A stretch of 64,000 bases of DNA, from assembly GCF_013315695.1 (NCBI RefSeq), contig NZ_CP054353.1, one strand, 5' to 3'. A program made the translations under genes and the position numbers. This DNA comes from Escherichia coli (GTDB taxonomy: Bacteria; Pseudomonadota; Gammaproteobacteria; Enterobacterales; Enterobacteriaceae). The notes beneath the pieces are model-generated. The model saw nothing but the letters and a program-made list of their open reading frames with translations. It ran no database searches and was not told where the DNA came from. Each line of letters opens with the position of its first letter. The stretch's first letter is position 1. This document shows, piece by piece, positions 1 to 49,004 of this stretch.

Positions 1-1
1 G

Positions 2-2362: not shown

Positions 2363-2375
2363 CCATCAACGAAAA

Positions 2376-2990: not shown

Positions 2991-2995
2991 ATAAA

Positions 2996-3024: not shown

Positions 3025-3033
3025 TCATGATGG

Positions 3034-5367: not shown

Positions 5368-5381
5368 GGTGTTGTTCTCCT

Positions 5382-5702: not shown

Positions 5703-5837
5703 TTGTTTTCCTCCCTGTGACAGATGACTGCATTCCGTGCCGGTTGCATTAACTGATAAGGCATATCTGCGTCTCCTGAAGACGTGCGTATCCCTGCGCG
5801 AATACGCACATTTAATTTTTCGGGTGTCGTTTTTTAA

Positions 5838-6293: not shown

Positions 6294-6573
6294 GCGTCTT
6301 GTCTCCCCGGTCTTTCTGCTGGGCGAGAAAATCGCGGCACAGGCCTTTGGCTTTCAGCTCATTCAGCACAAAATCAATATCTTCATTCAGGTAGCTGAAA
6401 ATATGCGGAATGTAGAGCTGATGCAGGCCGGAGAGTTCACGGTGAATCAAATCACCCCCAACAAACTGGGATACGGCGCTGGCGCGGTTGAGCTTATGGT
6501 AAGCCTCAATGCTGAGGTGTTCACGGGCGTCATGACGCGCTGAGACGGTCTGAGGGGCTTTTTTATTACGCAC
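6286..6573 (-). CDS. Hypothetical small protein, 95 aa with proposed GTG start (possible epsilon-like)
   Basis: GTG at 6571-6573 (rc) preceded by GGTGGAGG; ATG-initiated versions of this ORF have N-termini that look non-coding. Confidence 0.35.
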
Positions 6574-6763
6574 GGGACACCTCCACCACCGGCAGACGGG
6601 CAGCAAGGGAGAGCACATAGTCACGGACAAGGGAACGGCGGGCACTGCGTTCATCACCGGCGACGGTGCGAAGCATGCAGATACGGGGATGACGGTCTGC
6701 GCGACGGACAGCCGCAAACACAAAGACAAATTCAGGGTGTGAAGGGGTAAGGGTTGTAGCCAT
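6566..6763 (-). CDS. Hypothetical small protein, 65 aa
   Basis: ATG at 6761-6763 (rc) with GGAGG 9 nt upstream; C-terminal part of a longer ORF-track frame. Confidence 0.3.
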
Positions 6764-7161
6764 GATGGCAGCCTCCGTTAGATAGCAGGTTACGCTATCG
6801 CCGGAGTTTCCACGCTCGATGGCGATAGCCCAGACGGGGGTGGAAATACCGGCTCTAACGGATACCGGCCAGCCCGGAGGCTGCCCCGCCTGAGCTACCA
6901 TTGACTCTGCGGCATAATGAGCGGACGCGGGCAGGATGCACGGAGTTCCATCTGCTCGACTGACCACACACCACACCATAATCTGGCGCTCTGTGGCGTT
7001 GATTGCGACACAAAAAAAGACGCATGGCGCGTCATATGTCGCCGTTAGATTGCTCGGGTTTCCACGCCCGGCTGCCGATTTTGCGACAGCGGAAAAACTA
7101 TATCCGCAAATGCCGGAAAAAGGCAAGCCAGAAAAAGGGACTTTTTGCAGAACAGGCATCA

Positions 7162-7428
7162 TCATGCGTCGTACCCCCGTTTGCGTCCGGCAATGCGGCC
7201 GGCCATCCATGCGGTGACTTCAGAGTGCAGCCAGGCCACATTTTTACCGCCAAGACTCACCTGCGGCGGAAATTCCCCCTTACGGATGAGTTCGTAGATG
7301 GTCGAGCGTGACAGGCCGCACAGGTGCATCACTTCCGGAAGACGTAAAAAACGCTCCTGTGTGATGTCCGGCAGCGGCATCAGTGGCGTCACAGGGGCGG
7401 GAGACGGGGAAGAAAAAACAGCTTGCAT
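7162..7428 (-). CDS. AlpA/Vis-family transcriptional regulator (88 aa)
   Basis: Conserved AlpA-type HTH region (LRLPEV...[17 protein letters not shown]); same length as P4 Vis. Confidence 0.8.
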
Positions 7429-7706
7429 CGGGCTACCTCGTTAATGTCCATACAGCACCGGATAAGTCCGTCCGGCTTCGGGTAGCGCTTTATTTTGTGA
7501 ATATTTTCGGCAGACGCAACAGGGGGGATTTGTTCCGGCAGCCTTACAATGGCTGTGCATTTTTTGTACATCAGCGCCAGATAGCTTTAAAACGCTCTGG
7601 AAGGAGCTGGAAAAAATTATAGTGAAATACAAATTGTTTTTTCTTATTTATTTCAGTGAATTAATAAAAATAAAAAGTAATAAACAGCACAAAAAGCCCA
7701 TCAACG

Positions 7707-7811
7707 GGTGAACAGTGGTGAACAGACGGTGAACAGTCATTACTGCGATTGTTCACCCTTTAACTTACTGTATTACTTATCTTTTTTCTTATTGTGAACA
7801 GAGGTGAACAG
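7707..7811. repeat. ori-like iteron cluster (six GGTGAACA/TGTTCACC octamers)
   Basis: gggtgaacagtggtgaacagacggtgaacag ... gattgttcaccc ... ttgtgaacagaggtgaacag between the Vis-like gene and sid; same octamer as the crr-like repeats. Confidence 0.65.
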
Positions 7812-7980
7812 TAAAATATAAAAAAAACAAACAGTAAGCCGGTTTTTCCTGCGACCTTTTCCTGGCTTGCCGGTCGGAGGATGAGTCTCCTGTGTCAGGG
7901 CTGGCACATCTGCAATGCGTCGTGTTGTTGTCCGGTGTACGTCACAATTTTCTTAACCTGAAGTGACGAGGAACCGGAAA

Positions 7981-8715
7981 ATGTCTGACAACACCATCCC
8001 TGAATATCTGCAACCCGCGCTGGCACAACTGGAAAAGGCCAGAGCCGCCCATCTTGAGAACGCCCGCCTGATGGATGAGACCGTCACGGCCATTGAACGG
8101 GCAGAGCAGGAAAAAAATGCGCTGGCGCAGGCCGACGGAAACGACGCTGACGACTGGCGCACGGCCTTTCGTGCAGCCGGTGGTGTCCTGAGCGATGAGC
8201 TGAAACAGCGCCACATTGAGCGCGTGGCACGCCGGGAGCTGGTACAGGAATATGACAATCTGGCCGTGGTGCTGAATTTTGAACGCGAACGCCTGAAAGG
8301 GGCGTGTGACAGCACGGCCACCGCCTACCGGAAGGCACATCATCACCTTCTGAGTCTGTATGCAGAGCATGAGCTGGAACACGCCCTGAATGAAACCTGT
8401 GAGGCGCTTGTCCGGGCAATGCATCTGAGCATCCTGGTACAGGAAAATCCGCTCGCCAACACCACCGGCCATCAGGGCTACATCTCACCGGAAAAGGCTG
8501 TCATGCAGCAGGTGAAATCATCGCTGGAACAGAAAATAAAACAGATGCAAATCAGCCTCAGCGGTGAGCCGGTTCTCCGGCTGGCCGGACTGTCAGCGGC
8601 AACACTCCCGCACATGGATTATGAGGTGGCAGGCACACCGGCGCAGCGCAAGGTGTGGCAGGACAAAATAGACCAGCAGGGAGCAGAGCTGAAGGCCAGA
8701 GGACTGCTGTCATGA
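7981..8715 (+). CDS. sid: Sid-like capsid size-determination (external scaffold) protein, 244 aa
   Basis: Position first in the sid-delta-psu block; length equals P4 Sid; stop overlaps the delta start (ATGA). Confidence 0.6.
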   Translation: MSDNTIPEYLQPALAQLEKARAAHLENARLMDETVTAIERAEQEKNALAQADGNDADDWRTAFRAAGGVLSDELKQRHIERVARRELVQEYDNLAVVLNFERERLKGACDSTATAYRKAHHHLLSLYAEHELEHALNETCEALVRAMHLSILVQENPLANTTGHQGYISPEKAVMQQVKSSLEQKIKQMQISLSGEPVLRLAGLSAATLPHMDYEVAGTPAQRKVWQDKIDQQGAELKARGLLS

Positions 8716-9212
8716 TTTACTGCCCGTCGTGTGGACATGTTGCTCACACCCGCCGCGCACATTTCATGGACGATGGCACCAAGATAATGATTGCACAGTG
8801 CCGGAATATTTATTGCTCTGCGACATTTGAAGCGAGTGAAAGCTTTTTCTCTGACAGTAAAGATTCAGGAATGGAATACATTTCAGGCAAACAGAGATAC
8901 CGCGATTCACTGACTTCTGCCTCCGGCAGTATGAAACGCCCGAAAAGAATGCTTGTGACCGGATATTGTTGTCGGAGATGTAAAGGCCTTGCACTGTCAA
9001 GAACATCGAGGCGTCTGTCTCAGGAAGTCACCGAGCGTTTTTATGTGTGCACGGAGCCGGGTTGTGGTCTGGTGTTTAAAACGCTTCAGACCATCAACCG
9101 CTTCATTGTTCGCCCGGTCACGCCGGACGAACTGGCAGAAAGCCTGCATGAAAAACAGGAACTGCCGCCAGTACGGTTAAAAACACAATCATATTCGCTG
9201 CGTCTGGAATGA
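8712..9212 (+). CDS. delta: Delta late-gene activator (tandem Ogr-like zinc fingers), 166 aa
   Basis: Two Ogr-type Cys motifs (CPSCGHVAHTRR...C..C and a second CxxC...C block); length equals P4 Delta. Confidence 0.8.
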   Translation: MIYCPSCGHVAHTRRAHFMDDGTKIMIAQCRNIYCSATFEASESFFSDSKDSGMEYISGKQRYRDSLTSASGSMKRPKRMLVTGYCCRRCKGLALSRTSRRLSQEVTERFYVCTEPGCGLVFKTLQTINRFIVRPVTPDELAESLHEKQELPPVRLKTQSYSLRLE

Positions 9213-9285
9213 GGGCTGCCGGTTAACCCCGGCCGTCGCCGCACACCGTATTTTTATTCTTCAGCATGATGAGAAAGAGATAACG

Positions 9286-9858
9286 ATGGAAAGCACAGCC
9301 TTACAGCAGGCCTTTGACACCTGTCAGAATAACAAAGCAGCATGGCTGCAACGCAAAAATGAGCTGGCTGCGGCCGAACAGGAATATCTGCGGCTTCTGT
9401 CAGGAGAAGGCAGAAACGTCAGTCGCCTGGACGAATTACGCAATATTATCGAAGTCAGAAAATGGCAGGTGAATCAGGCCGCCGGTCGTTATATTCGTTC
9501 GCATGAAGCCGTTCAGCACATCAGCATCCGCGACCGGCTGAATGATTTTATGCTGCAGCACGGCACAGCACTGGCGGCCGCACTGGCACCGGAGCTGATG
9601 GGCTACAGTGAGCTGACGGCCATTGCCCGAAACTGTGCCATACAGCGTGCCACAGATGCCCTGCGTGAAGCCCTCCTGTCCTGGCTTGCGAAGGGTGAAA
9701 AAATTAATTATTCCGCACAGGATAGCGACATTTTAACGACCATCGGATTCAGGCCTGACGCGGCTTCGGTGGATGACAGCCGTGAAAAATTCACCCCTGC
9801 GCAGAACATGATTTTTTCGCGTAAAAGTGCGCAACTGGCATCACGTCAGTCTGTGTAA
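9286..9858 (+). CDS. psu: Psu-like polarity-suppression / capsid decoration protein, 190 aa
   Basis: Position after delta and length equal to P4 Psu. Confidence 0.65.
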   Translation: MESTALQQAFDTCQNNKAAWLQRKNELAAAEQEYLRLLSGEGRNVSRLDELRNIIEVRKWQVNQAAGRYIRSHEAVQHISIRDRLNDFMLQHGTALAAALAPELMGYSELTAIARNCAIQRATDALREALLSWLAKGEKINYSAQDSDILTTIGFRPDAASVDDSREKFTPAQNMIFSRKSAQLASRQSV

Positions 9859-10021
9859 AACTCCCCGAAAATCCGCCCGTTTTACTGAAAAAAGCCATGC
9901 ATCGATAAGGTGCATGGCTTTGCATGCGTTTTCCTGCCTCATTTTCTGTAAACCGTGCCATTCCCGGCGCGGTCTGAGCGTGTCAGTACAACTGCATTAA
10001 AACCGCCCCGCAAAGCGGGCG

Positions 10022-10040
10022 GGCGAGGCGGGGAAAGCAC
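10022..10040. other. cos site (cohesive end) of the P4-like element
   Basis: ggcgaggcggggaaagcac matches the P2/P4-family cohesive-end sequence as I recall it; located after psu as in P4. Confidence 0.6.
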
Positions 10041-10074
10041 TGCGCGCAGTATAAGAATTAAATAGGTATGGATT

Positions 10075-12033
10075 TTAAAATCCATCAAGTAGCTGATTGA
10101 TACCATTGCTCTCATCACAATTTATTTGCTCTAACTCAAATAAAGCACTGTCGTACTTTATTTGGGGAGTGTTTTCAAATGACAATAAAGATTCGATTAG
10201 TCTTATTTCTTTATCTTTATTTATGTCTTTAAGTGAGTCTAAAGTTAAATTGAATTTAACTTCGGGTTGTTTTCCTACTTCCATCATGATATTTGACTCC
10301 AACTCTGGATCAGTATTGAAGAATCGATGTGTCTTATGGAAATAACTAGGTTTTCTTGATTTTAAAATACTTAGTATATCCGACTTGATAGTGCTTTCCC
10401 GTGCTATCACAAGCCAATGGTTGGCAACCCCTGTGATGGTGGTAATGATGTGGGAGCCATTTTCACTTAGTTCATTAAAGGCTCTTAAGTCACCCTTGAA
10501 AAAATCATTTAGCAACTCATTTTCTTTATCTTTATCAAAAAGGTAAATTATTGAATTGCCGGCTAATGATATTTCAGCCTTGGTTTTTATAGTATCGCAA
10601 TTAAATTGCGCGGTCTCATTTTTTAATTCTTCGTAAGATGATTTTAAGTCTAAAAGCAAGCATTTTATTATACTTGATCTGAAAGATGAGTAATCAATAT
10701 CAGCACAAAGTGAAAATAAATTTCTGTGACGAATGGATTCAGGGCTGTAATATAGCTTTGTTAATATTTCTTTTTGGCGTTCTTTTGTGTCACGACAGAT
10801 AAACATAGCTGCAAAATATTCCATTAATGATTTGTGTGACCAACGAATAATAGCGCCTTCTTTGACAAATAATGGAACGGTTTCAATTAAGTCCTGAATA
10901 AAAAGAGATGGTGAAGTTGATATTCCGGGAATTTTTGAAATGATATTTTGCAATGTTATTTGCAGATCGTCTTTCGTAAACTCAATTTTACCTCCGTCTT
11001 TCAAACACCAAAAACCTAATCTCCTTAAGACCTGATGGAAGTCAGTGGAGTCTAGCTTAGAAAATTTTTCTCTAACATAACCAAGTTCTTTAGTTAAATC
11101 ATGAGACTCATACAAAGCGTCAAATACTTGGCTATAAAATAACTCTCTTTTTCTTGGTATTATCGGTTTGAATTTATATGCACAAAATAATAATGAAACA
11201 TAAAGAGGTGTGGATAAAAATTCATTTAGATTATGACCATTCTCCAGTCGTAATCCTTTAATTAATTGAGATGAAATAGGGCCACGTCCATCATATCGAC
11301 GTAATAGATCATACGCTTGATTCGTTTCTAATGGGTTGATTTTAAATCTTGAGAAACCATGTAGTTCTGATAAGAAATTATCATGACGAGAAGTTATAAT
11401 TATTTTGCTTTCTGAGAAATTATTAGCAAAGGTACTTAGTAAATTTACGATCTTGGATTTGAGTTGTTGTGGGATTTCATCTATGCCATCGAAAAGATAA
11501 ATAAAAGGGATTTTTTTGAGGCAGTTGTCTGAAATGTCTTCTCCTAAACCAAGTTGATGTTTCACCTGTAGCGCAAAATCATAATCTTTAGCACGTCGTA
11601 ATTCAATGTATATTGGAATGTATTCCTTATTAGCGATGCAATCTAAAGCAATTCTTTTCATTAGGGTGGACTTACCCATTCCTGCTGAGTCAGTGATTAA
11701 TATATGATTGAAATTATCTAATAAATCTGCATTGTCTTTTATTAGGCATGTGTATGGTTTTTTTTCATTATCGTAATAAATGCTCATTGGCTCATAAATA
11801 TCTAGAAGCTCTACTGGAGTATTTTGAAAAGCTAAGGTATTCACAAGGGAGCATTGCCCTTTCACATTTGATAGGAAACGTTCAAGATTTTTATTCAAGA
11901 AGCGTGCTGCATGTACATCTATTAAATAATTACGAACACTACTTTCTATGATAGGTAATATTTTATTCTTAATAACCTCCTTTGCCCATGGAAGGGATGC
12001 AGAGACTAATACATCAAGAGATACTGGTTGCAT
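10075..12033 (-). CDS. NACHT-type STAND NTPase (652 aa), candidate anti-phage protein in the P4 cargo slot
   Basis: Walker A GMGKST and NACHT-type Walker B LFDGIDE; long C-terminal helical region; strongly AT-rich versus flanks; sits between cos/psu and int. Confidence 0.75.
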   Translation of the reverse strand: MQPVSLDVLVSASLPWAKEVIKNKILPIIESSVRNYLIDVHAARFLNKNLERFLSNVKGQCSLVNTLAFQNTPVELLDIYEPMSIYYDNEKKPYTCLIKDNADLLDNFNHILITDSAGMGKSTLMKRIALDCIANKEYIPIYIELRRAKDYDFALQVKHQLGLGEDISDNCLKKIPFIYLFDGIDEIPQQLKSKIVNLLSTFANNFSESKIIITSRHDNFLSELHGFSRFKINPLETNQAYDLLRRYDGRGPISSQLIKGLRLENGHNLNEFLSTPLYVSLLFCAYKFKPIIPRKRELFYSQVFDALYESHDLTKELGYVREKFSKLDSTDFHQVLRRLGFWCLKDGGKIEFTKDDLQITLQNIISKIPGISTSPSLFIQDLIETVPLFVKEGAIIRWSHKSLMEYFAAMFICRDTKERQKEILTKLYYSPESIRHRNLFSLCADIDYSSFRSSIIKCLLLDLKSSYEELKNETAQFNCDTIKTKAEISLAGNSIIYLFDKDKENELLNDFFKGDLRAFNELSENGSHIITTITGVANHWLVIARESTIKSDILSILKSRKPSYFHKTHRFFNTDPELESNIMMEVGKQPEVKFNLTLDSLKDINKDKEIRLIESLLSFENTPQIKYDSALFELEQINCDESNGINQLLDGF

Positions 12034-12036
12034 GAA

Positions 12037-13245
12037 TTATACCTTATTTTCTACGTTTAAATTTTTGACCTTAAGTCCCCACCAGTTCATTAAATCGATT
12101 CTGGTATGTAAATATGTTGAGCGGTTATATGCTCTTCTAACTTCGTTTTTGTCAGAGTGCGCTAAAGCAGCTTCAATGACATCTGGGTTAAAACCTCTTT
12201 CATTCATGGCTGTACTTGCTATTGAACGTAGACCATGAGCAACCAGCTTCCCGCCATAACCAATACGTTTTAAAGCAGCATTAGCAGTTTGGCTATTCAT
12301 TGGCTGTTTTGGGTCATTTCTACTGGGAAAAACATGTTCACGATGAGCACTGATTGGTTTCATTACCTCCAGAATCTCTATTGCCTGAGGTGATAAAGGA
12401 ACAATGTGTTCCCGCTTAGCTTTCATCCGTTCGGCTGGAATAGTCCAGAGCTTTGCGTCAAGATCGATCTCTGCCCAACGAGCACCGGAAGCTTCAGAAG
12501 GGCGCACAAGGGTCAGAAGCTGCCACTCAATTAGACAGCGAGTCGAAACAGAGAGGTTCGACATCACCAAAGAGCGCATGAGTTTTGGTAATTCTTCAGG
12601 TCGTAGCGTTGGCATGTGTTGCTTTTTGGGTTTCTCAAATGCCATACCAATACCAGATGCCGGGTTTGCATCAATCAGGCCAGTGTTGACGGCGTAGATC
12701 ATGATTTCGTTAATACGCTGCACCAGTCGACGTACAGTCTCTAGCGCCCCACGTGCTTTGATTGGCTCAAGGGTTTCAACTAGTGTTCGGGCTTTGATTT
12801 GCTGGACAGGGATCTCCCCGATGACAGGGAATACGTCTTTTTCCAGTGACCGCCATATATCTTTAGCGTAATCGGGTGTAACGCTTTTGCTTTTGAGCTG
12901 GAACCAGTTAGCGGCGACCGTTGAAAAAATACTGTCCAGAGCGATTTGCTGCTGTTCCTCTGCAACTTCGGCCTGAATTTGCGGGTCAATTCCGTTGGCT
13001 AACAAAGCAAGGTAATCCGCTCTTAACCGTCGAGCATCAGCAAGTGAAAGGGCGGGGAAAGCACCAAGCCCCATCATTGTCCGCTGTTTTGTTGCTGGAC
13101 GTTGATAACGGAAACGCCACAACTTCTTACCGTTCGTTTTAACGAGCAGAAAAAGACCATCGCCATCATGTAACGTTAGATCCTTTTCTAACGCTCTAGC
13201 GCGCAGAACTTCTGTGCTGGTCAGGGGGCGTGTCGTTCTTGCCAC
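12037..13245 (-). CDS. int: P4-type tyrosine integrase (402 aa)
   Basis: P4 integrase-like N-terminus (...GLFLLV...G.K.WRFRY) and C-terminal catalytic region (...HGLR...RAYNRS); adjacent to ssrA-derived att core. Confidence 0.9.
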   Translation of the reverse strand: MARTTRPLTSTEVLRARALEKDLTLHDGDGLFLLVKTNGKKLWRFRYQRPATKQRTMMGLGAFPALSLADARRLRADYLALLANGIDPQIQAEVAEEQQQIALDSIFSTVAANWFQLKSKSVTPDYAKDIWRSLEKDVFPVIGEIPVQQIKARTLVETLEPIKARGALETVRRLVQRINEIMIYAVNTGLIDANPASGIGMAFEKPKKQHMPTLRPEELPKLMRSLVMSNLSVSTRCLIEWQLLTLVRPSEASGARWAEIDLDAKLWTIPAERMKAKREHIVPLSPQAIEILEVMKPISAHREHVFPSRNDPKQPMNSQTANAALKRIGYGGKLVAHGLRSIASTAMNERGFNPDVIEAALAHSDKNEVRRAYNRSTYLHTRIDLMNWWGLKVKNLNVENKV

Positions 13246-13366
13246 TGTGGCCGCTCCTTCATTAATTGGTATACGCGTTTAGGTAAACATCCTACCGTAT
13301 ACCTAAACGTATACCAATAATCACTGGATTTAGCTGGATATCCTCGGACAACGGTAGACACAAAAA

Positions 13367-13394
13367 AGCCCGCAGAGCTTGTGCCATGCGGGCT
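13367..13394 (-). terminator. Rho-independent terminator next to the internal att core
   Basis: agcccgca/tgcgggct hairpin with T-run on the minus strand, ~35 bp beyond the tmRNA-3'-end copy. Confidence 0.5.
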
Positions 13395-13429
13395 TTCAGG
13401 ATTTCTCCGGACGTATCCGGAAGAGCAAG

Positions 13430-13474
13430 TGGTGGAGCTGGCGGGAGTTGAACCCGCGTCCGAAATTCCTACAT
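13430..13474. repeat. Internal att core: 45-bp copy of the ssrA 3' end (junction between P4-like element and P2-like prophage)
   Basis: tggtggagctggcgggagttgaacccgcgtccgaaattcctacat is identical to 48642-48686. Confidence 0.9.
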
Positions 13475-13589
13475 ACCATTTTCACTATAACAAAAACATT
13501 AACTTGCGTTTAAAATCATCAAGTTAGTATTATCTTATGTTTGTCCGTTTTACTCATTTTTAATGCTCTGTCGCCAATCTGTCGCCACA

Positions 13590-14240
13590 TTATCCGCTGC
13601 TTGAGTTGAAATCTGTGGGTTTACGGAGATTAGATCTTATGGTTTTTTCAGCGATACGAATAGTCGAAAATTTATGCAGGTTCATCAGTGCTATACAAAT
13701 CCCAAGTGCAAAAAAGTAGCTGGACATTCCTAATCTTTGCATATCAGTAAGTTTATTAATTTTCTCTAAAATATGTTGGGTTACTAATCCTTCGTATACA
13801 AAAGGTATGGAAGTTATAAAACCGCCAATAAAATAGAATGTTAAGCTTATCAGCTTTATAGATTTTCTATATATCCAAAAGCGATATCTTTTTTTTGTCC
13901 ATTTAAATATTTGTTTTTCACTACTAATAGAAATTAGTTTTTGACACTTGCTATAGTTATCAATGTCATTAACTGGATCGTTAACACCTAAAAGAATCTC
14001 TCTCTGTTCTGGAGTTAGGTTCTTATCTTTTGTTATTGCAGCAATACCATAATTATATGCAACTTTCTTGATTTTGGGATCTTCAGTATTCTTATATAGA
14101 TTGTATGCAAACTCGCTAATGTTTTTGCGCGAGTTGAAAATCTTATCTTTGGGGAAAACCCAGCCGGATCTTACCGCGAGCATCTGTATGATCGGGGTAA
14201 TTATCGCGACAGAATACTTAATTATCTCGTTTATGTTCAT
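13590..14240 (-). CDS. Hypothetical membrane protein (216 aa), cargo gene between attL and int
   Basis: AT-rich; soluble N-terminal ~125 aa followed by two hydrophobic helices; 14 bp downstream of int in the same orientation. Confidence 0.6.
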   Translation of the reverse strand: MNINEIIKYSVAIITPIIQMLAVRSGWVFPKDKIFNSRKNISEFAYNLYKNTEDPKIKKVAYNYGIAAITKDKNLTPEQREILLGVNDPVNDIDNYSKCQKLISISSEKQIFKWTKKRYRFWIYRKSIKLISLTFYFIGGFITSIPFVYEGLVTQHILEKINKLTDMQRLGMSSYFFALGICIALMNLHKFSTIRIAEKTIRSNLRKPTDFNSSSG

Positions 14241-14254
14241 GATCCATTGTTTAC

Positions 14255-15271
14255 TTAAATTAAGTTATAAAGAGGGTTTTTTGTTACTGCATCCTCCAGG
14301 TGGTCTGGAGAGAAGTGTGCATAAATCATCGTCATTTTAATATCTGAGTGCCCTAAAATATCACGTAAAACGAGTATGTTCCCACCGTTCATCATAAAAT
14401 GGCTGGCAAATGTATGGCGCAGGACGTGGGTGCATTGGCCTTCCGGTAGTTCAATACCGGCCCGTTTTACCGCCCGTTCAAAGGCTTTTCTGCATGGTGT
14501 GAATAATTTCCCTCGGTTTTTGGGTAGCTCGTTGTACAGATCCTGAGATATCGGTACGGTACGGTTTTTTTTACCCTTGGTCTTTGTATAGGTAATCCGG
14601 TATTTCGATAGTTGATGGCCCTGCAGGTTTTCAGCTTCACTCCAACGAGCACCGGTTGCTAGGCATATTTTTGCAATCATTAGCAGACTGGGGCTTTGAG
14701 AATCAGCACAGGCATCCAGCAGACGTTTAATTTCCTCCGGGGTTAGGAACGCCAGTTCACCCTCCGTAATTTTAAATGTTGGAAGCCCGGCAAGCGGGTT
14801 GGGGGCTGACCAGTGGCCCAGCTTTTTCAGTGTACCAAAAACAGATGATAGGTTGCGCTGTTCAAGGTTTACCGTGCGGGGCTTAACGGGTGACATGAAC
14901 GAGCCGTCTTCATTTTGGACCTCCCCCTTTAATCTGGCTTCCCGATATTTTGTGAAATCACCTGCTGTCAGCTCAGAGGCGATGGGATCGCCTAGACCAT
15001 TACAGATAATTCTAAGTTTCGCCATCAGGCGTTTGGGGTCTGCGAGTGTTTGACCATATAGGGAATACCACTGCTCAATCACTTCTGATAATCGCCGCCG
15101 ATCTTCCTTCTCACCAAGCCATGGCTTTTTGTTTACTTCGTTCATGGTGAAGTTTTCGAATGCTATGGCTTCGCCTTTCGTGGCAAATTGCTTACGCACG
15201 CGCTTGCCATTGCGTCCATTGGGATAGCACTCACACAACCATTTTCCGTTCGGCTGTTTTCTGATGGTCAT
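14255..15271 (-). CDS. int: P2-type tyrosine integrase (338 aa)
   Basis: Catalytic region motifs (...ARWSE...HVLRHTFASHF...LGHSDIKMTMIYAH); position next to att and repressor. Confidence 0.9.
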   Translation of the reverse strand: MTIRKQPNGKWLCECYPNGRNGKRVRKQFATKGEAIAFENFTMNEVNKKPWLGEKEDRRRLSEVIEQWYSLYGQTLADPKRLMAKLRIICNGLGDPIASELTAGDFTKYREARLKGEVQNEDGSFMSPVKPRTVNLEQRNLSSVFGTLKKLGHWSAPNPLAGLPTFKITEGELAFLTPEEIKRLLDACADSQSPSLLMIAKICLATGARWSEAENLQGHQLSKYRITYTKTKGKKNRTVPISQDLYNELPKNRGKLFTPCRKAFERAVKRAGIELPEGQCTHVLRHTFASHFMMNGGNILVLRDILGHSDIKMTMIYAHFSPDHLEDAVTKNPLYNLI

Positions 15272-15272
15272 A

Positions 15273-15905
15273 TCAAAGGCTCTTAATGATTTTCAGTGCA
15301 CGGCCTACTACCTCAATGTCATCCAGGCCACACTCAAACGATGAATCATCCTGATGCACTACTAATCTGTTTCCCGGGAGTCGAGTCAATTTAACAATGC
15401 TTTTTATCCCGTCGATATCGACTAACCACATACCATTCACTGGTGGTGTTTGGTTGCGATCTATTAAATAAGAATCACCAGAAGTAGTCACCAGCAGTAG
15501 GTTGCTTGAGTCTGAGGGGAGTATGCTGCTATCAATGATTGCTTTTCCAGCATCGACCAATAAACCACCGTTGAGAGTCGCCTTGTCAATTTCAGGAGAT
15601 ACTAGTTCAGAAAGAGGTACAACCTTGCTGGAGTTCACGGAATTGATATTTTTTTTAGGTTCAATGTTTGGACCTGGCTCCCCCTGTCCGGTGGTTAGCC
15701 ACAGTAAAGAAACTCCTGTTTCCAAGGCGCACTGAATCACCCACTCTGCAGGAAAACTATCTCTTAAGTATCTGTTTGCCATGGTGCTTTTTGATGCGCC
15801 TAAGTGATCGCAAAGTTGCTGTCTGGACTTGAAATCATAGGCTGCCATTAGTCTATGGATAGCTTCTCTTCCCCCTGTATTCTCTCCAGCCTTTACCTGT
15901 ATCAT
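15273..15905 (-). CDS. CI-type immunity repressor (210 aa, HTH N-terminus)
   Basis: Divergent from the apl/cox-like gene, adjacent to int; size closer to phage 186 CI than P2 C. Confidence 0.7.
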   Translation of the reverse strand: MIQVKAGENTGGREAIHRLMAAYDFKSRQQLCDHLGASKSTMANRYLRDSFPAEWVIQCALETGVSLLWLTTGQGEPGPNIEPKKNINSVNSSKVVPLSELVSPEIDKATLNGGLLVDAGKAIIDSSILPSDSSNLLLVTTSGDSYLIDRNQTPPVNGMWLVDIDGIKSIVKLTRLPGNRLVVHQDDSSFECGLDDIEVVGRALKIIKSL

Positions 15906-24320: not shown

Positions 24321-24923
24321 ATGAAAAAAAATACTCTTTATATTATTTCAATTGCATTGGCTGTTGTTGGGTTTCTTATGGCTCTTATTCCACGGCTCCC
24401 ATATTTATTTCAAGGAGTTAATGATGAGATTATCATCTCCGTTATTGGATTATCTTTTGCCTATTCTGGCCTGAGTTTGATTGTGTTAATGAAATTAAGG
24501 GAAAGAAGACTAAAGGCCGTTAAAAAAGGAAAGCAAATATTTCTAATGTATCCCGTACAAGAAAAAGATAAGGCCCGTCAAATAACTTGTAAGCTTAATG
24601 AGTTAGGTTTTGATGTATGGTTTGATGAAAATAACATATTGCCCGGGCAGATTATTGAAAAGCAAATTAATCAGGCTATAGACAATAGCGCTGCGGCTAT
24701 ATTGCTTCTGTCTAATGAAGATATGGAGTCATATATAAGAAAGGAGGTAGAGGGCTTTCTCCGTAAAGCTACGGTAAAAGATGAAAACTATGTTCCTATA
24801 ATTCCTGTGATAATTGGTGATGCTGAATTGCCTGCGATGCTCAAAAACATCAAGTCTGTAAACTATGAGGATGAAAAATTAATTGATAAGCTCAATTTGT
24901 CATTGAAGTCCATTCTTGGTTGA
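24321..24923 (+). CDS. Membrane-anchored TIR-like domain protein (200 aa: 2 TM helices plus TIR-like domain)
   Basis: C-terminal region follows the TIR pattern: KQIFLMY...LNELGFDVWFDENNILPGQII...INQAIDNSAAAILLLSNEDMESYIRKEV...YVPIIPVII. Confidence 0.6.
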   Translation: MKKNTLYIISIALAVVGFLMALIPRLPYLFQGVNDEIIISVIGLSFAYSGLSLIVLMKLRERRLKAVKKGKQIFLMYPVQEKDKARQITCKLNELGFDVWFDENNILPGQIIEKQINQAIDNSAAAILLLSNEDMESYIRKEVEGFLRKATVKDENYVPIIPVIIGDAELPAMLKNIKSVNYEDEKLIDKLNLSLKSILG

Positions 24924-34347: not shown

Positions 34348-34703
34348 CGCTTTATAGCGGGATGAACAATACCAGCGGCAAAGTCATTACTGATATTGAT
34401 CATCTGCGCCAGTCGGTGCGGGACATTCTGCTGACACCGCAGGGTAGCCGTATTGCCCGCCGGGAATATGGTTCCCTGCTGTCGGCACTGATAGATCAGC
34501 CACAAAATCCGGCATTACGCCTGCAGGTCATGTCGGCAGTGTATGTGGCGCTGAGTCGCTGGGAGCCACGGTTGACGCTGGATTCCATCACCATCAACAG
34601 CAATTTTGACGGTTCAATGGTGGTGGAGCTGACCGGGCGGCGGAATAACGGTGTGCCTGTGTCCCTTTCCGTATCAACAGGAGCAGAGAATGGCAGTGAT
34701 TGA
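34344..34703 (+). CDS. Baseplate protein W (119 aa)
   Basis: Position and size as P2 W. Confidence 0.85.
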   Translation: MTLYSGMNNTSGKVITDIDHLRQSVRDILLTPQGSRIARREYGSLLSALIDQPQNPALRLQVMSAVYVALSRWEPRLTLDSITINSNFDGSMVVELTGRRNNGVPVSLSVSTGAENGSD

Positions 34704-35598
34704 CCTTTCGCAGTTGCCTGCACCGCAGATTGTGGATGTGCCGGACTTTGAGACGCTGCTTGCCGAACGCAAGGCAGAATTTGTGGCGCTTCATCCGAAA
34801 GATGAACAGGAAGCAGTGATCCGCACGCTGGAACTGGAATCTGAACCCGCCACTAAATTGTTGCAGGAGAACGCTTACCGTGAGTTGCTTCTGCGCCAGC
34901 GCATTAACGAAGCCGCGCAGGCGGTGATGGTGGCTTACGCGATGGGCGGCGATCTTGACCAGCTCGCTGCCAACTACAACGTGACACGCCTGACGGTGAC
35001 GCCTGCTGATAATGATGCTGTGCCGCCCGTTGCAGCTGTGATGGAAAGCGATGAAGCGTTGCGCCTGCGTGTGCCTGCAGCCTTTGAAGGGCTTTCTGTT
35101 GCGGGGCCAACTGCAGCTTATGAATTTCATGCCCGAAGCGCCGACGGTCGGGTGGCGGATGCCAGTGCAACCAGCACGGCACCTGCAGAGGTGGTGCTGA
35201 CTGTCCTTAGCCGCGAAGGCGATGGAACTGCAGAAAAAGACCTGCTGGACGTGGTGGAAAAAGCTCTGAACAGTGAGAACGTCCGCCCGGTGGCTGACCG
35301 TCTTACGGTTCGCAGCGCAGAAATCATCCCGTATCGCGTGGAAGCCACCATTTTTCTCTATCCGGGACCGGAAGCAGAGCCGGTAATGGCAGCGGCAAAA
35401 GCCAGTCTGCAGAAGTACATTGCCAGCCAGACGCGTCTTGGTCGGGATATTCGCCGTAGCGCCATCTTTGCTGCTCTGCATGTTGAGGGTGTTCAACGTG
35501 TGGAACTGGCTTCTCCGCTGGCGGATGTGGTCCTGAACAAAACACAGGCGGCATCATGTACGCAGTGGAGCGTAACCAACGGAGGAACGGATGAATAG
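34690..35598 (+). CDS. Baseplate protein J (302 aa)
   Basis: ATG at 34690 overlapping the W stop; size as P2 J. Confidence 0.85.
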   Translation: MAVIDLSQLPAPQIVDVPDFETLLAERKAEFVALHPKDEQEAVIRTLELESEPATKLLQENAYRELLLRQRINEAAQAVMVAYAMGGDLDQLAANYNVTRLTVTPADNDAVPPVAAVMESDEALRLRVPAAFEGLSVAGPTAAYEFHARSADGRVADASATSTAPAEVVLTVLSREGDGTAEKDLLDVVEKALNSENVRPVADRLTVRSAEIIPYRVEATIFLYPGPEAEPVMAAAKASLQKYIASQTRLGRDIRRSAIFAALHVEGVQRVELASPLADVVLNKTQAASCTQWSVTNGGTDE

Positions 35599-36196
35599 TC
35601 TGCTGCCACCGGGTTCAACTTCACTGGAGCGCCGACTGGCGCAAACCTGTAGCGGGATTTCTGATTTGCAGGTGCCGCTGCGTGACTTGTGGAATCCGGC
35701 TACCTGTCCGGTCAGCTTCCTGCCTTATCTCGCCTGGGCGTTCTCTGTGGATCGCTGGGACGAGGGCTGGACAGAAAGCGTCAAACGCCAGGTAGTGAAG
35801 GATGCTTTTTATATTCATCAGCATAAAGGAACCACCAGTGCCGTACGGCGAGTGGTGGAACCGTTCGGATTCCTGATCCGCATTATTGAGTGGTGGCAGA
35901 CCGGAGAAACACCGGGCACGTTTCGCCTGGATATCGGCGTGCAGGACCAGGGCATCACTGAAGATACCTATCTGGAACTTGAGCGACTGATAAGCGATGC
36001 CAAACCATGTAGCCGCCACATGATCGGCATGTCCATCAATCTGCAGACCAGCGGCCCGCATTGGGTGGGAGCCGCCAGCTATCTTGGCGAAGAAATCACG
36101 ATCTATCCGTATATCAACGAAACGATTATTTCCGGTGGCACCGCGCATGAAGGCGGGGCGGTCCATGTTATTGACACAATGAGAGTGAATCCATGA
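35591..36196 (+). CDS. Baseplate protein I (201 aa)
   Basis: Position after J. Confidence 0.8.
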   Translation: MNSLLPPGSTSLERRLAQTCSGISDLQVPLRDLWNPATCPVSFLPYLAWAFSVDRWDEGWTESVKRQVVKDAFYIHQHKGTTSAVRRVVEPFGFLIRIIEWWQTGETPGTFRLDIGVQDQGITEDTYLELERLISDAKPCSRHMIGMSINLQTSGPHWVGAASYLGEEITIYPYINETIISGGTAHEGGAVHVIDTMRVNP

Positions 36197-37314
36197 GCAC
36201 AAAATTTTATACCCTGCTGACGGATATTGGCGCGGCGAAACTTGCCAGCGCCGCCGCGCTCGGTGTGCCGCTAAAAATTACCCATATGGCGGTGGGCGAT
36301 GGCGGTGGAGTATTGCCAACGCCGGACGCAAAGCAGACGGCACTGGTAAATGAGAAACGCCGGGCTGCGCTGAATATGCTTTATATCGACCCGCAGAACA
36401 GCAGCCAGATTATTGCCGAACAGGTGATCCCTGAAAACGAGGGCGGTTGGTGGATACGTGAAGTGGGCTTGTTTGATGAGTCCGGGGCATTGATTGCCGT
36501 GGGCAACTGCCCGGAAAGCTATAAGCCGCAACTGGCTGAAGGTAGCGGGCGCACTCAGACCGTGCGCATGGTGCTGATTACCAGCAGCACGGACAATATC
36601 ACCCTGAAAATCGACCCTGCTGTAGTGCTGGCAACCCGCAAGTATGTGGATGACAAGGCACTGGAGCTGAAGGTGTACGCAGATGATCAGATGGCAAAAC
36701 ATCTTGCCGCACCGGACCCGCATTCACAGTACGCGCCAAAAGCCAGCCCGACATTTACCGGAACCCCCAAAGCGCCAACGCCAGCGGCGGGGAATAATAC
36801 CACGCAGGTTGCGACCACTGCGTTTGTACAGGCGGCACTGACGGCCCTTATTAATGGTGCGCCAGCCACGCTGGACACGCTGAAAGAAATAGCCGCAGCC
36901 ATTAACAATGATCCGAATTTCAGTACCACCATTAACAATGCGCTGGCACTAAAAGCGCCACTGTCGAGTCCGGCACTCACCGGAACGCCAACAGCACCTA
37001 CTGCGGCACAGTCGGTCAACAATACACAGATTGCCACTACAGCTTTTGTGAAATCAGCGATTGCAGCAATGGTGGGTTCTGCACCCGCGGCACTGGATAC
37101 ACTGAACGAACTGGCGGCGGCACTGGGGAATGATCCGAACTTTGCCACGACAATGCTTAATGCGCTGGCAGGTAAACAACCGCTGGACAATACGCTGACT
37201 AATTTGAGTGGAAAGGATGTAGCTGGTCTTCTCGCATACCTTGGTTTGGGAGAAGGCGGCAAAACTGGGTGTGCCTGTTCCAGGGGCCTTCAGATACCGG
37301 ACAACAGGCTTTGA
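36193..37314 (+). CDS. Tail fibre protein H, constant N-terminal part; ORF terminates 20 codons past the inversion crossover site
   Basis: Conserved tail-fibre N-terminus (MSTKFYT...LKITHMAVGDGGG); only 373 aa versus ~670 aa for P2 H. Confidence 0.75.
   Translation: MSTKFYTLLTDIGAAKLASAAALGVPLKITHMAVGDGGGVLPTPDAKQTALVNEKRRAALNMLYIDPQNSSQIIAEQVIPENEGGWWIREVGLFDESGALIAVGNCPESYKPQLAEGSGRTQTVRMVLITSSTDNITLKIDPAVVLATRKYVDDKALELKVYADDQMAKHLAAPDPHSQYAPKASPTFTGTPKAPTPAAGNNTTQVATTAFVQAALTALINGAPATLDTLKEIAAAINNDPNFSTTINNALALKAPLSSPALTGTPTAPTAAQSVNNTQIATTAFVKSAIAAMVGSAPAALDTLNELAAALGNDPNFATTMLNALAGKQPLDNTLTNLSGKDVAGLLAYLGLGEGGKTGCACSRGLQIPDNRL
37229..37254. other. Left inversion crossover site (gix/hix-like)
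   Basis: ttctcgcataccttggtttgggagaa; its reverse complement matches 39115-39140 and the hix/gix core AAACCAAGGT. Confidence 0.6.
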
Positions 37315-39114
37315 AATGCAAGTGGTGATGGATGGATGAAATTACCCGGAACTGGAAAATCCTGCAAAATGGTCGTGGTGATTTACGCCGAGTTTATCGA
37401 CGCTGGGATGAGAATTACATTGATTAGGCATCGTGTTTTATTGAGTAAGGCCGGACTGCGGAAAAGCACCGTCATCCTGGTGATGGCGGTGCGACTTCAA
37501 AAGCGCTGGGGGAACTGGCGATGATCTTCAGAAGGCCCAACGTTAACAGGGGGCTTTATGCCGCTGCTTACAGAACGTCATCCAACCAGCGACACGGTAT
37601 CGATGAACGACAGTTGGTGGGCTGTTGGCGGGAGTAATTTTATCCAGGGTGATTTATATTGAACGAATATGTTTATAGCTGCAATGGATAACGCCGTATT
37701 TTCCCGAGGATACCACGATTGCGGGGAATATATAAATCATAGGGATGGGATTGGTGAGACGCGGGAATATATTTCTGCATCAACTCAAAATATTTGCAGT
37801 GGGAGTTTCGGTATTGAACCGCCACAAGGACGCTCCGGTACATCTAAGGCTGGAGATGATTTGCTGTTCTGCGTGGAGAAAATCATGGGAATATGTGTCA
37901 GAAGAACTTATTGAAATTACTGAATCAGAAAACACCGGAAACCAAGATGCCAACGAAATACAGAACAGGCGACTATCCCGAAAATACAGCCGCTATCGGT
38001 CGCCATGAACGATAAATGAACTGGCGCAATATAATTGACAGATACTGGATTATCTGGACGGTGGAACTGGTTGATTCCTCCAGCACAGCGCCAGTCATTG
38101 ATTGATGGCAATGGCCTCCGGCAGTCTGGCCAGATGAAACATCCGGCGCGGGACTGTAAACTGTTGCCGTCACCGAAACAATGTAATCCAGCGCAGCGTT
38201 AAGTTGGTTGACGCTGGTGACGGCAACAGATACCGTCCGGCCGGATGTCATCAGTTGAACTGCCTGAGGCGCAGGCCATTTGCATCAATCTGGTGACTGG
38301 GAGGAATCAACCAGTTCAGTGCGTCCAGATAATCCAGCCACAAATTACCCATTTTCGCCAGTTCCCATTTATCAGACGACGTTAGCGGCTTTACCGGGTG
38401 GTTGTATTTTCATGATATTCGCCTGGCTTGATTTAATTAGTAGCTCTGTCTTTCTGATTCAGTTATAGACGATTTCACTTCGATGGTGGGTGGATGATTT
38501 TTAAATCCACAGAACGGCAAATTCATAACCAGCCTTACGGATTTTGAGCGTTGTGGCAGGTTCTGGAATAAACTCACTGCAAGATATTTTTGATGCAGAA
38601 ATATATTCCCGCGTCTCACCATCATAGTTATAGACGGTCAATATATCCACGCCTTCGTGGTAATGCCTTGCGCTATTTAAACACGGCGTCGTTCATTAAT
38701 GCAGCCCTGACGATAAGTTAAACCAACAGCCCACGGGTTGTAATTCGCCGATACCGATGTCGCTGGTGAATGACGTTCGGTGATGGGATCAGAATTAAAG
38801 CCGGTTAACCCCCTGGGCCTTCGTGCAGTCATCACGAATTGTCGCCCAGCGCCCATTCCTCTTTGAGCCATCACCCAGAATGAGTACAGGATGACGGTGC
38901 TTTTCCAGCATTTTGGGGAAAGGGATGCTAAAAACACGTCCTCATTGTTACCGCGATAATGTCGGCGTAACCGCGAATAACGACCGCATAAATCAGGTAA
39001 TTTATTTGTTGGATAATTGCCAGTTCCATCCATCAAAATGCCGCACCGTTGCAAAAGCCAGCCTGTCCGGTATCTGAAGGCCATGGAACAGTCACACCAT
39101 CCCGTTTTGCAGAG

Positions 39115-39140
39115 CTTCTCCCAAACCAACGTTTATGAAA
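39115..39140. other. Right inversion crossover site (gix/hix-like)
   Basis: ttctcccaaaccaacgtttatgaaaa, inverted relative to 37229-37254. Confidence 0.6.
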
Positions 39141-39196
39141 ATGCAGAGATAATGGCTAACTGGCATCATCCCCGGTTTTTATTCAGGGGGATGATC

Positions 39197-39763
39197 ATGC
39201 TTATTGGCTATGTACGCGTGTCAACAAATGACCAGAACACCGATTTGCAACGTAATGCACTGAACTGCGCGGGATGTGAGCGGATTTTTGAGGATAAAAT
39301 CAGTGGCACTAAGTCCGACAGACCAGGGTTGAAAAAACTGCTCAGGACACTATCGGCAGGAGACACGCTGGTTGTCTGGAAGCTGGACAGGTTGGGGCGC
39401 AGTATGCGGCATCTTGTTACGCTGATAGAAGAGTTGCGTCAGCGAGGCGTGAATTTCCGAAGCCTGACTGACAGTATTGATACCAGCACCCCAATGGGCC
39501 GTTTCTTTTTTCATGTCATGGGTGCCCTGGCTGAAATGGAACGCGAACTGATAGTTGAACGTACCAGGGCAGGGCTGGCTGCAGCTCGTGCCAAAGGCAG
39601 AGTAGGTGGACGCCGTCCTAAGTTGACCACCGAACAGTGGGCACAGATTGGGCGTTTACTCGAGGCCGGAGAATCAAGACAGCGTATTGCACTGATTTTT
39701 GATGTAGGCGTTTCTACCATTTATAGAAAATTTCCGGCAAATAAGAGCAATGAATCTCCCTGA
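39197..39763 (+). CDS. pin: Serine DNA invertase (Pin/Gin/Hin family), 188 aa
   Basis: MLIGYVRVSTNDQNTDLQRNAL...DTLVVWKLDRLGRSM... matches E. coli Pin; aggggg RBS before ATG 39197. Confidence 0.9.
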   Translation: MLIGYVRVSTNDQNTDLQRNALNCAGCERIFEDKISGTKSDRPGLKKLLRTLSAGDTLVVWKLDRLGRSMRHLVTLIEELRQRGVNFRSLTDSIDTSTPMGRFFFHVMGALAEMERELIVERTRAGLAAARAKGRVGGRRPKLTTEQWAQIGRLLEAGESRQRIALIFDVGVSTIYRKFPANKSNESP

Positions 39764-39904: not shown

Positions 39905-41077
39905 ATGGCTCAGGATTACCACCATGGGGTGCGCGTTGTTGAAGTCAACGAAGGCACCCGATCCATTACCACGGTGAGCACCGCCATCGTGGGTATGGTC
40001 TGCACGGGCGACGATGCCGATGCAAAAATGTTTCCTCTTAATAAACCCGTGCTGATCACTGATGTGCTGACTGCCAGCGGTAAAGCGGGTGAGTCCGGCA
40101 CGCTGGCCCGTTCGCTGGACGCCATCGCTGACCAGGCAAAACCCGTGACCGTTGTTGTGCGTGTGCCGCAGGGTGAAACGGAAGAAGAAACCACAACCAA
40201 TATCATCGGCGCAGTGACCGCCGAGGGTAAAAAAACAGGCATGAAAGCCCTGCTATCTGCCCAGTCACAGCTCGGCGTTAAACCGCGCATTCTCGGCGTG
40301 CCAGGTCACGATAACAAAGCCGTTGCTACTGAGTTGCTGAGTGTGGCGCAAAGCCTGCGTGGGTTTGCCTACCTGTCAGCATATGGCTGCAAGACGGTAC
40401 AGGAGGCGATCACTTACCGTGAAAACTTCAGCCAGCGCGAAGGGATGCTGATCTGGCCTGACTTTACTGGCTGGGACACGGTGCTGAACGCCGAAGCAAT
40501 GGCATATGCCACCGCCCGTGCGCTTGGTCTGCGTGCCAAAATTGATGAGCAGACCGGGTGGCACAAAAGCCTGTCCAACGTGGGCGTGAACGGTGTCACC
40601 GGAATTTCTGCAGATGTGTTCTGGGATCTGCAGGACCCGGCAACCGATGCAGGTCTGCTGAACCAGAACGACGTCACCACGCTTGTGCGTAAAGACGGTT
40701 TCCGCTTCTGGGGTTCCCGCTGCCTGAGTGATAACCCGCTCTTTGCCTTCGAAAACTACACCCGCACGGCGCAGGTGCTGATGGACACGATGGCAGAAGC
40801 ACACATGTGGGCGGTGGATAAACCGCTTAACCCGTCGCTGGCCCGCGACATTATCGAAGGTATCCGCGCCAAAATGCGCAACCTGGTCAGTCAGGGCTAT
40901 CTCATTGGTGGTGATTGCTGGCTGGACGAGTCGGTGAACGACAAAGACACGCTTAAAGCCGGAAAACTCACCATCGACTACGACTACACGCCAGTGCCGC
41001 CACTTGAAAATCTGATGCTGCGCCAGCGCATCACCGATCAGTACCTGGTGAATTTCGCCAGCCAGGTCAGCGCGTAA
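39905..41077 (+). CDS. Tail sheath protein FI (390 aa)
   Basis: Size and position as P2 FI. Confidence 0.9.
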
Positions 41078-47269: not shown

Positions 47270-48346
47270 TTAATAGAATGTTTCTACTAAAGCGTTTACA
47301 TGTTCTCTAGCCTCGCGATAACGCTCTCTTACAACGTTGATAATTTCACCGTTTGGCATTTCATAATGAGTTTGAGCAGGAAGTTTGAAAAGAGGAATTC
47401 CCAAACTTGCAGAAACTTTCCCTGAAGTATGAAAATCTTTAACTTCAGAAAGATAGGCCGCCTCCCATTCATTTAAGTTATTGATTTCACGATATCGCTC
47501 CGTGAATAGTTCTGGGAAGTTCTGATATTGTGTAAAAGCAAAAGCACAAAGGGATTCTTTGATTGAATCATAAGCTCTGGCAACACCAAGATTAGACGTA
47601 AAGTTATTGAAAACAAAGCGATCTAACTTAGGTAATGTAAGATTATTATTCACAACTTGGCTATGAAAAGTGACAAACTTTTCTGCATAGGTTTGTGCAG
47701 CAGAAGAGGGATAATGGCCATAAAGAAGCATCATTATTCCTTTCATCCCTTCTAATGAACTGTAATCAGCCATCATAGGGACGACCAGTCTATCTGAAGA
47801 TAGTAGAGCCATTTGGGTGTAGATAGAAAAACTTGGATTACAGTCAATAAAGACAACCATATCATCGTAATCATCAATATCATGTTCTAGAGTACATAGT
47901 CGACGAAATGCTGTCATATACTCTTTCCATGCGAACCTGTTAGCTGGACTGATAACTGCATAGTTCAGTGCAAGAGTAAGGGACTCGAGGAATGAATCAC
48001 CGGCGATGAGAAACAAATTATCGCTGATTTCATCATTATATTGGTTTACTGCTACTTTGAAAGAACGTCGAATACTGGTGAAATTTGAATGGCCATCTAA
48101 AAGCCAGTCCAGAAACCCTACGACATTTTTGCGTGTTCGTGAAGATTGTAGCTCTTGATTAGTATTGTACCCACGATCACCTCCTCCAAGCAGGTATTGA
48201 GAAATGTTTGCTTGCGGACACAAATCTATTACTAGTACCTGTGTGCTGGGATTTTCTTCTGCATACTGTGCAGCAATGTTGAAACCAAGTGTTGTTTTTC
48301 CAACACCGCCTTTGTTGTTATACATTGCATAAATCTTAACTGCCAT
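47270..48346 (-). CDS. ParA/MinD-like P-loop ATPase with ~150-aa C-terminal extension (358 aa), cargo gene between ogr and attR
   Basis: Deviant Walker A NKGGVGKTT, A' motif VLVIDLCPQANIS, Walker B VVFIDCNPS; AT-rich. Confidence 0.7.
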   Translation of the reverse strand: MAVKIYAMYNNKGGVGKTTLGFNIAAQYAEENPSTQVLVIDLCPQANISQYLLGGGDRGYNTNQELQSSRTRKNVVGFLDWLLDGHSNFTSIRRSFKVAVNQYNDEISDNLFLIAGDSFLESLTLALNYAVISPANRFAWKEYMTAFRRLCTLEHDIDDYDDMVVFIDCNPSFSIYTQMALLSSDRLVVPMMADYSSLEGMKGIMMLLYGHYPSSAAQTYAEKFVTFHSQVVNNNLTLPKLDRFVFNNFTSNLGVARAYDSIKESLCAFAFTQYQNFPELFTERYREINNLNEWEAAYLSEVKDFHTSGKVSASLGIPLFKLPAQTHYEMPNGEIINVVRERYREAREHVNALVETFY

Positions 48347-48641: not shown

Positions 48642-48686
48642 TGGTGGAGCTGGCGGGAGTTGAACCCGCGTCCGAAATTCCTACAT
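48642..48686. repeat. attR core: 3' end of ssrA, identical to 13430-13474
   Basis: 45-bp exact direct repeat. Confidence 0.9.
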
Positions 48687-49004
48687 CCTCGGTACTACAT
48701 GCTTAGTCAGTCTTTACATTCGCTTGCCAGCTGCGGACGGACACGCCACTAACAAACTAGCCTGATTAAGTTTTAACGCTTCAACCCCAGGCAGGGCTTC
48801 CACGCGATCTCTTTTGGGTTTGACCTCTCTTGATCCCCGTCCTAAGAGCGGAGGCTAGGGAGAGAGGGCTCTAAGCAGGTTATTAAGCTGCTAAAGCGTA
48901 GTTTTCGTCGTTTGCGACTATTTTTTGCGGCTTTTTACGAGGCCAACCGCCCCTCGGCATGCACCTTGGGTTTCGCAAATCCCGTCGAATCCAGAATCAG
49001 CCCC
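48642..49004 (-). ncRNA. ssrA: tmRNA (SsrA RNA), 363 nt
   Basis: Reverse complement begins GGGGCTGATTCTGGATTCGACGGG and ends GGGTTCAACTCCCGCCAGCTCCACCA; tag ORF region (GCAAACGACGAAAACTACGCTTTAGCAGCTTAA) present. Confidence 0.97.

Follow-up and report, generated by a model that had tools for sequence, protein, structure and literature searches.

What has happened to the invertible tail-fibre segment of a P2-like prophage in the Escherichia coli contig NZ_CP054353.1 (assembly GCF_013315695.1), in which every gene appears to be broken? The stretch analysed, here called the window, is 64,000 nt long, and the segment is a 1.9-kb interval that begins inside the tail-fibre gene H, is bounded by two crossover sites in inverted orientation and is followed by a gene for a serine DNA invertase. 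Inversion switches of the Gin/Cin/Pin type in tail-fibre genes are well known from textbooks. The first-pass annotation, which was made from the sequence alone, recognised a switch of this kind here and proposed that it had once been functional and had since decayed or been rearranged internally. The alignments described below show that both orientations of a single intact segment are instead finely interleaved in the printed interior, with the recombination sites as its limits. The explanation that we favour, with a probability of about 0.9, is that the assembly consensus has blended the two orientations of an ordinary tail-fibre inversion switch, so that the printed chimera exists in no molecule. 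The degenerate nested palindrome seen in the segment is then most likely not a real feature of the DNA, and the switch was probably flipping in the sequenced culture.

The frame of the switch is well preserved. The 373-aa H open reading frame (ORF; 36193-37314, plus strand) reads through a hix/gix-like site, TTCTCGCATACCTTGGTTTGGGAGAA at 37229-37254, and stops 20 codons further on, as had been noted at first reading. The inverted copy of the site, at 39116-39141, stands just before the gene for a Pin-family invertase, again as described; it has 5 mismatches to the left site, while the inner 13-nt half-sites (TGGTTTGGGAGAA in the left site) are identical. Both sites are kept at matching positions in the intact relatives introduced below, the prophages of E. 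coli 23CRST024 (L001) and OkiPb01716 (L003). The elements that make up and frame the segment are these:

36193-37228, plus strand: constant N-terminal part of H (Sc), intact; the ORF 36193-37314 matches phrog_327 and other tail-fibre families.
37229-37254, no strand: left 26-bp hix/gix-like crossover site, within H; position kept in L001 and L003.
37255-39115, no strand: interior of the invertible segment as printed, a two-orientation mosaic with broken frames, from the alignment to L001.
39116-39141, no strand: right 26-bp crossover site, inverted.
39197-39763, plus strand: serine DNA invertase of the Gin/Cin/Pin/Hin family, intact, 188 aa, from PDB and PHROGs matches.

The identities of the invertase and of the tail-fibre arms were settled by PHROGs and PDB sequence searches; NCBIfam was of no use for the arms, and for the invertase it returned only recombinase matches below threshold. 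The invertase matches phrog_125 (DNA invertase, E 9e-101), and its top match among solved structures is 3UJ3, titled DNA-invertase (E 8e-93, residues 1-184), alongside 4M6F, which bears the same title; we take both entries to be Mu Gin. Its N-terminus, MLIGYVRVSTNDQ, has a serine at position 9, the position that is established as catalytic in Gin. For hin, gin and cin the literature describes a Fis-dependent recombinational enhancer within the 5' part of the gene. An invertase-subfamily small serine recombinase is encoded beside the segment, and two inverted crossover sites of about 26 bp bound it, one of them inside a tail-fibre ORF; by the features testable here, the locus is a Gin/Cin/Pin/Hin-type invertible tail-fibre (host-range) segment. 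The nearest full-length relatives, in the prophages of 23CRST024, OkiPb01716 and MINF_1D, show what such a segment looks like when it is whole. The segments of relatives are clean and in a single orientation, and the length is 1917 nt in 23CRST024 and OkiPb01716 as against 1913 nt in the window. All four segment genes are intact in OkiPb01716. There, H is 473 aa long (1501-2922) and runs without interruption across the site (...GLLAYLGLGEAAKRDV...), tfa encodes 150 aa, and the opposite strand carries a tfa' of 200 aa, which contains the VYNYDGETREYISAS motif, and an Sv' ORF of 173 aa. In 23CRST024 one tail-fibre-assembly gene is annotated as a pseudogene. Through the alignment of the window with the OkiPb01716 prophage, and in the orientation seen in these two relatives, the four genes project onto the window as follows:

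37255-37637, plus strand: Sv, variable C-terminus of H, projected (approximate); from the OkiPb01716 H ORF, 1501-2922.
37649-38139, plus strand: tfa, projected (approximate); from OkiPb01716 2934-3386, 150 aa, which matches phrog_188 (tail fiber assembly).
38110-38696, minus strand: tfa', projected, from which both the VYNYDGETREYISAS fragment and the mirror copy of it (37753-37784) derive; from OkiPb01716 3358-3960, 200 aa, which matches phrog_105.
38696-39169, minus strand: Sv', alternative tail-fibre C-terminus, projected, reading out through the right site; from OkiPb01716 3960-4481, 173 aa, which matches phrog_523 and phrog_3100 (tail fibre).

These relatives were used as templates as the strain's own clean segment was not found: a clean copy of it was sought in E. 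coli MS 21-1 and MSB1_4I (L008) and was absent from both. In MS 21-1 the place of the prophage is taken by another element. MSB1_4I has, at the same ssrA site, a prophage that shares 96-99% identity with the one in the window, yet its arms are partly different: H is 487 aa long and the Sv' gene measures 399 nt. The interval 12797-15675 there corresponds to 37229-39141 in the window. In the MSB1_4I prophage H reads into the 200-aa class of tfa, which OkiPb01716 has on the opposite strand. On these comparisons, arms are exchanged between otherwise near-identical prophages, the deposited genomes differing in the tfa class that follows H. A separate observation concerns the annotation of H in four of the relatives (L001, L003, L004 and L005), where RefSeq splits the gene (locus 1501-2922) into a tail protein labelled as pseudo, missing C-terminus (1501-1890) and a "gp53-like" coding sequence (2512-2922). 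The ORF is continuous (473 aa) in OkiPb01716, and the split appears to be a quirk in how invertible tail-fibre genes are annotated.

The segment of the window was aligned end to end with that of 23CRST024 in both possible orientations. It matches the forward orientation at 69.9% and the inverted one at 66.5%, whereas the two orientations of the 23CRST024 segment match each other at 36.5%, which is the level of shuffled sequence. An intact segment behaves quite differently: 23CRST024 compared with OkiPb01716 gives 96.6% forward, 37.1% inverted and 98.0% matching either. When the window segment was shuffled and compared with OkiPb01716, the values were about 37% forward, about 36% inverted and 58-60% matching either. 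In the unshuffled segment 96.3% of the bases are the forward or the inverted base of 23CRST024 (767 bases match both, 571 the forward alone, 505 the inverted alone, and 70 match neither). At positions where the window departs from the forward orientation, 87.8% of its bases are the inverted base, against 34-41% in the controls; conversely, 89.1% of the bases that differ from the inverted orientation are the forward base. The residue that fits neither orientation (3.7%) equals the substitution divergence of the flanks from 23CRST024 (16/400 and 14/400; 3.5-4%), and therefore essentially the whole interior is accounted for. Every base is thus explained by one or other orientation, apart from a residue at the level of background divergence. 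The source orientation switches 194 times along the segment, giving 195 blocks with a median length of 6 nt and a longest block of 51 nt.

It is clear that the problem in the sequence is strictly local to the interval between the sites. The bases that match only the inverted orientation are confined to 37255-39107, strictly between the two crossover sites, and 37255 is the first base past the left site. Gap columns relative to OkiPb01716 number 172 in the interior, and there are none in the constant part of H (94.5% identical across 1036 nt) or in the invertase gene (567 nt, 98.6% identical, with an identical protein). The rest of the prophage is 96-99% identical to that of MSB1_4I, the alignment having 17 gaps over 20 kb, and long ORFs elsewhere in the window are unbroken. 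The errors thus lie within the invertible interval and its flanks are clean.

These observations bear directly on the proposal of a decayed switch, in which a once-functional system has been lost either as point mutations and indels accumulated or as its interior was rearranged. All the interior frames are indeed broken, and the 172 gap columns against an intact relative would be expected of a pseudogene. Under decay, however, the differences would bear no relation to the inverted sequence and would not stop at the sites. Random decay would make about 35-40% of the mismatches to the forward orientation coincide with the inverted base, and the proportion found is 88%; the decay reading fails here because mutation has no means of bringing a sequence to match the reverse complement of its mirror positions. 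Furthermore, the damage ends exactly at the crossover sites, while the invertase, the constant part of H and the prophage at large are intact, both flanking genes being free of gaps relative to OkiPb01716. Nor does recombination offer a way out, since mirror positions have no homology in the intact relatives, so that 194 alternations in 1.9 kb cannot arise by this means. Pseudogenisation is thus very unlikely, and of the first-pass annotation's description of the locus the invertible tail-fibre segment of Pin type stands, on the sites, the invertase and the gene families, whereas its decay or rearrangement does not; the advice given there to find out if the frameshifts are genuine was well placed. 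Gene conversion between the arms was also considered, and rejected. Alternatively, the mosaic could be a real molecule in which both orientations are interleaved at 6-50 nt by an unknown templated process, for example repeated strand switching across the inversion synapse. We know of no biological process that interleaves two non-homologous sequences some 200 times in 1.9 kb, and regard such a molecule as highly improbable.

The palindromic appearance of the segment is nevertheless real in the printed sequence. Sixteen inverted-repeat pairs were found in it, the best being 37752-37783 with 38590-38621 (32 nt, 100%), and a further one being 38045-38081 with 38300-38337. Thirteen of the 15 non-overlapping pairs have their midpoints at 38175-38196, and the midpoint of the segment is 38185; the nested repeats that had been reported around a centre near 38188 were recovered, with coordinates agreeing to within 1-2 nt. 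Compared with its own reverse complement, the interior reaches 57% identity, as against 36-38% in three intact relatives, so that its self-symmetry is well beyond chance. The window segment has 9 exact internal inverted repeats of at least 12 nt, and the intact relatives have none. The broken frames that had been noted in both arms are also present: no interior ORF resembles a complete gene, and all four expected frames are broken as printed. Among the remnants is the tail-fibre-assembly-like fragment VYNYDGETREYISAS (38501-38650, minus strand), and the motif ETREYISAS occurs on both strands, in this ORF and in that at 37669-37914 (plus strand).

A mixture of orientations would give rise to all of these features. 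If a stretch on the left were taken from the inverted orientation and its mirror stretch on the right from the forward one, a single true piece of DNA would be printed twice, the second time reverse-complemented; with the two orientations printed at mirror positions, the sequence then looks like a nested palindrome. The largest repeat pair illustrates this, as it consists of the inverted-labelled block 37753-37784 and the longest forward-labelled block, 38592-38642, both of which come from the N-terminus of tfa'. Printing that sequence twice would place the ETREYISAS motif on both strands, and the frames would be broken by the interleaving, with indels, of two unrelated sequences.

The nested repeats could also be read as extra recombination sites, making this a multi-site system, shufflon-like or of the Min type, in which sub-segments invert. 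The nested pairs do resemble, superficially, the multiple crossover sites of p15B Min. A system of this kind would have more than two sites, and the hix-like half-site is present in only two copies in the region, even with up to 2 mismatches allowed, neither of them internal. Moreover, what is repeated internally is coding sequence of tfa', tfa and Sv that has been printed twice, and intact relatives of the same length lack internal repeats. Of the readings weighed here, a multi-site system is the one to which we give almost no credence.

How could a consensus come to alternate between two orientations? The underlying layout would be the constant part of H, followed by a 26-bp site, the 1.9-kb invertible segment with Sv-tfa running one way and tfa'-Sv' the other, and then the Gin-family serine invertase. 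In the sequenced DNA the two orientations of the segment would have been about equally abundant; their reads, anchored by the common flanks, would have been stacked on one backbone, and a consensus or polishing step may then have taken bases alternately from each. This was simulated crudely, with noisy reads from forward and inverted templates, MAFFT alignment and a column-majority consensus, with these results for each mixture:

50:50: forward 0.59-0.80, inverted 0.55-0.77, either 0.94, switches 245-300.
55:45: forward about 0.91, inverted about 0.45, either 0.96-0.97, switches 113-145.
65:35: forward 0.99, inverted about 0.40, either 1.00, switches 8-12.

The 50:50 mixture thus yields a mosaic similar in kind to that of the window, while a 65:35 mixture resolves to 99% of the majority orientation, without a mosaic. 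The simulation supports the mixture mechanism qualitatively only. There is also a precedent: near-50:50 mixtures of an invertible switch have been reported to lead to misassembly and to mistakes in polishing (Wick et al. 2023, PLoS Comput Biol, PMC9980784). The example given there is the 314-bp fim promoter switch, in which dense consensus errors were likewise confined to the invertible element; here the element is a 1.9-kb coding segment, and the error appears as four destroyed genes and an apparent palindrome.

Several points weigh against a mixed-orientation consensus. Both the read mixture and the software step that would produce the mosaic are deduced from the finished consensus. The simulated blocks are finer than the real ones, with no exact inverted repeat of at least 12 nt as against the 9 in the window, and the real distribution of block lengths is not reproduced by a column-majority rule; presumably the actual consensus algorithm follows single reads for longer stretches than the simulation does. 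The flanks of the relatives differ from the window by 3.5-5.5%, and the templates are not the strain's own sequence. Finally, RefSeq complete E. coli genomes contain no full-length, high-identity match to the region, and an exact 45-mer of the mosaic found no match among GTDB representatives.

An artefact might also arise without any inversion in the culture, if the strain carried two near-identical P2-like prophages fixed in opposite orientations, whose reads were cross-mapped or collapsed in polishing. Such a pair would yield an identical two-orientation mosaic, and many E. coli genomes do carry several related P2-like prophages, with up to 8 matching places in a single genome. The two copies would however have to be identical in their flanks, where neither mosaic nor ambiguity is seen, and both would have to carry the same segment. 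The fact that the invertase and both sites are intact makes flipping within the population a simpler source of the two orientations, and we consider the two-copy explanation unlikely. With flipping in the culture as the preferred source, the palindrome, if anything, is a sign that the switch was active in the culture that was sequenced. Indirect support for inversion comes from the two-orientation mosaic and also from the MSB1_4I prophage, in which the other tfa class follows H.

With the interior set aside, the locus shares its plan with the G segment of Mu, the C segment of P1 and the P segment of e14. In all of them the serine invertase gene lies immediately outside the segment, the crossover sites are 26-bp inverted sequences of which one is inside the tail-fibre ORF, and two sets of C-terminus and chaperone genes run in opposite directions, the last being seen in the intact relatives of the window. 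The window differs from these in its carrier, a P2-like (Peduoviridae, Wadgaonvirus-like) prophage at ssrA, in its shorter arms, and in that its printed interior is a chimera of both orientations. Closer counterparts are Escherichia phage 500465-1 (Wadgaonvirus) and the prophages of 23CRST024, OkiPb01716, MINF_1D and MSB1_4I, which have the same tail module, sites and invertase, with flanks of 94-99% identity; in 500465-1 and MSB1_4I the arms are partly unlike those found here. A search with the region of tail fibre, segment and invertase gave matches, partial ones included, in 2,777 of 5,426 complete E. coli genomes. As biology, then, the locus is ordinary, this type of segment and the tail module being widespread in complete E. 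coli genomes.

Its interest lies in how it would be read. A reader or a pipeline annotating it would enter four pseudogenes and a host-range switch that no longer works, where the evidence points to a switch flipping at about 50:50 in culture; the locus is a clean worked example of balanced structural heterogeneity corrupting a consensus. We propose that such cases have a signature that may be recognisable without reads, namely a raised identity of the interval to its own reverse complement, together with flanks that are clean and mirror-symmetric repeats centred between inverted sites. Reverse-complement mosaics that lie between such sites may in this way flag both assembly errors and actively flipping invertons in deposited assemblies.

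The surroundings of the segment are those of a prophage in the E. coli chromosome; the recN-nadK-grpE stretch of the window is 100% identical to MS 21-1 and MSB1_4I. The prophage and its integration site are marked by the following features:

13430-13474: 45-bp copy of the ssrA 3' end, which marks the junction of tandem elements.
34651-35598: baseplate J.
35591-36196: I.
39905-41077: tail sheath.
48642-49004, minus strand: tmRNA gene (ssrA), integration site of the P2-like prophage.

Positions 1-13474 of the window are a second integrative element, P4-like, which stands in tandem with the P2-like prophage (a potential helper) at ssrA. It contains the following:

47-2362: autotransporter.
3034-5367, minus strand: P4-family primase.
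12037-13245, minus strand: P4-type integrase (NF007246, E 6e-177).

The P4-like element also has a single match, with 1 mismatch, to the hix inner half-site (11539-11551, minus strand); the number of such matches in the window is within chance expectation. Two further ORFs of the P2-like prophage deserve mention. The first, at 24321-24923 on the plus strand, encodes a 200-aa protein with similarity to TIR domains (PADLOC SAVED_TIR 5e-11; retron-TIR and Thoeris-like NCBIfam matches below cut-off). It sits between the early/replication region of the prophage and the portal gene, a position at which the MSB1_4I prophage differs, and on this similarity the protein may be anti-phage cargo. The second (47270-48346, minus strand) is a 358-aa ORF close to the prophage's ssrA end, and it lies downstream of where an ogr-like gene stands in the MSB1_4I prophage; its N-terminus resembles a ParA/RepA P-loop (E 7.5e-12), over residues 5-50 only.

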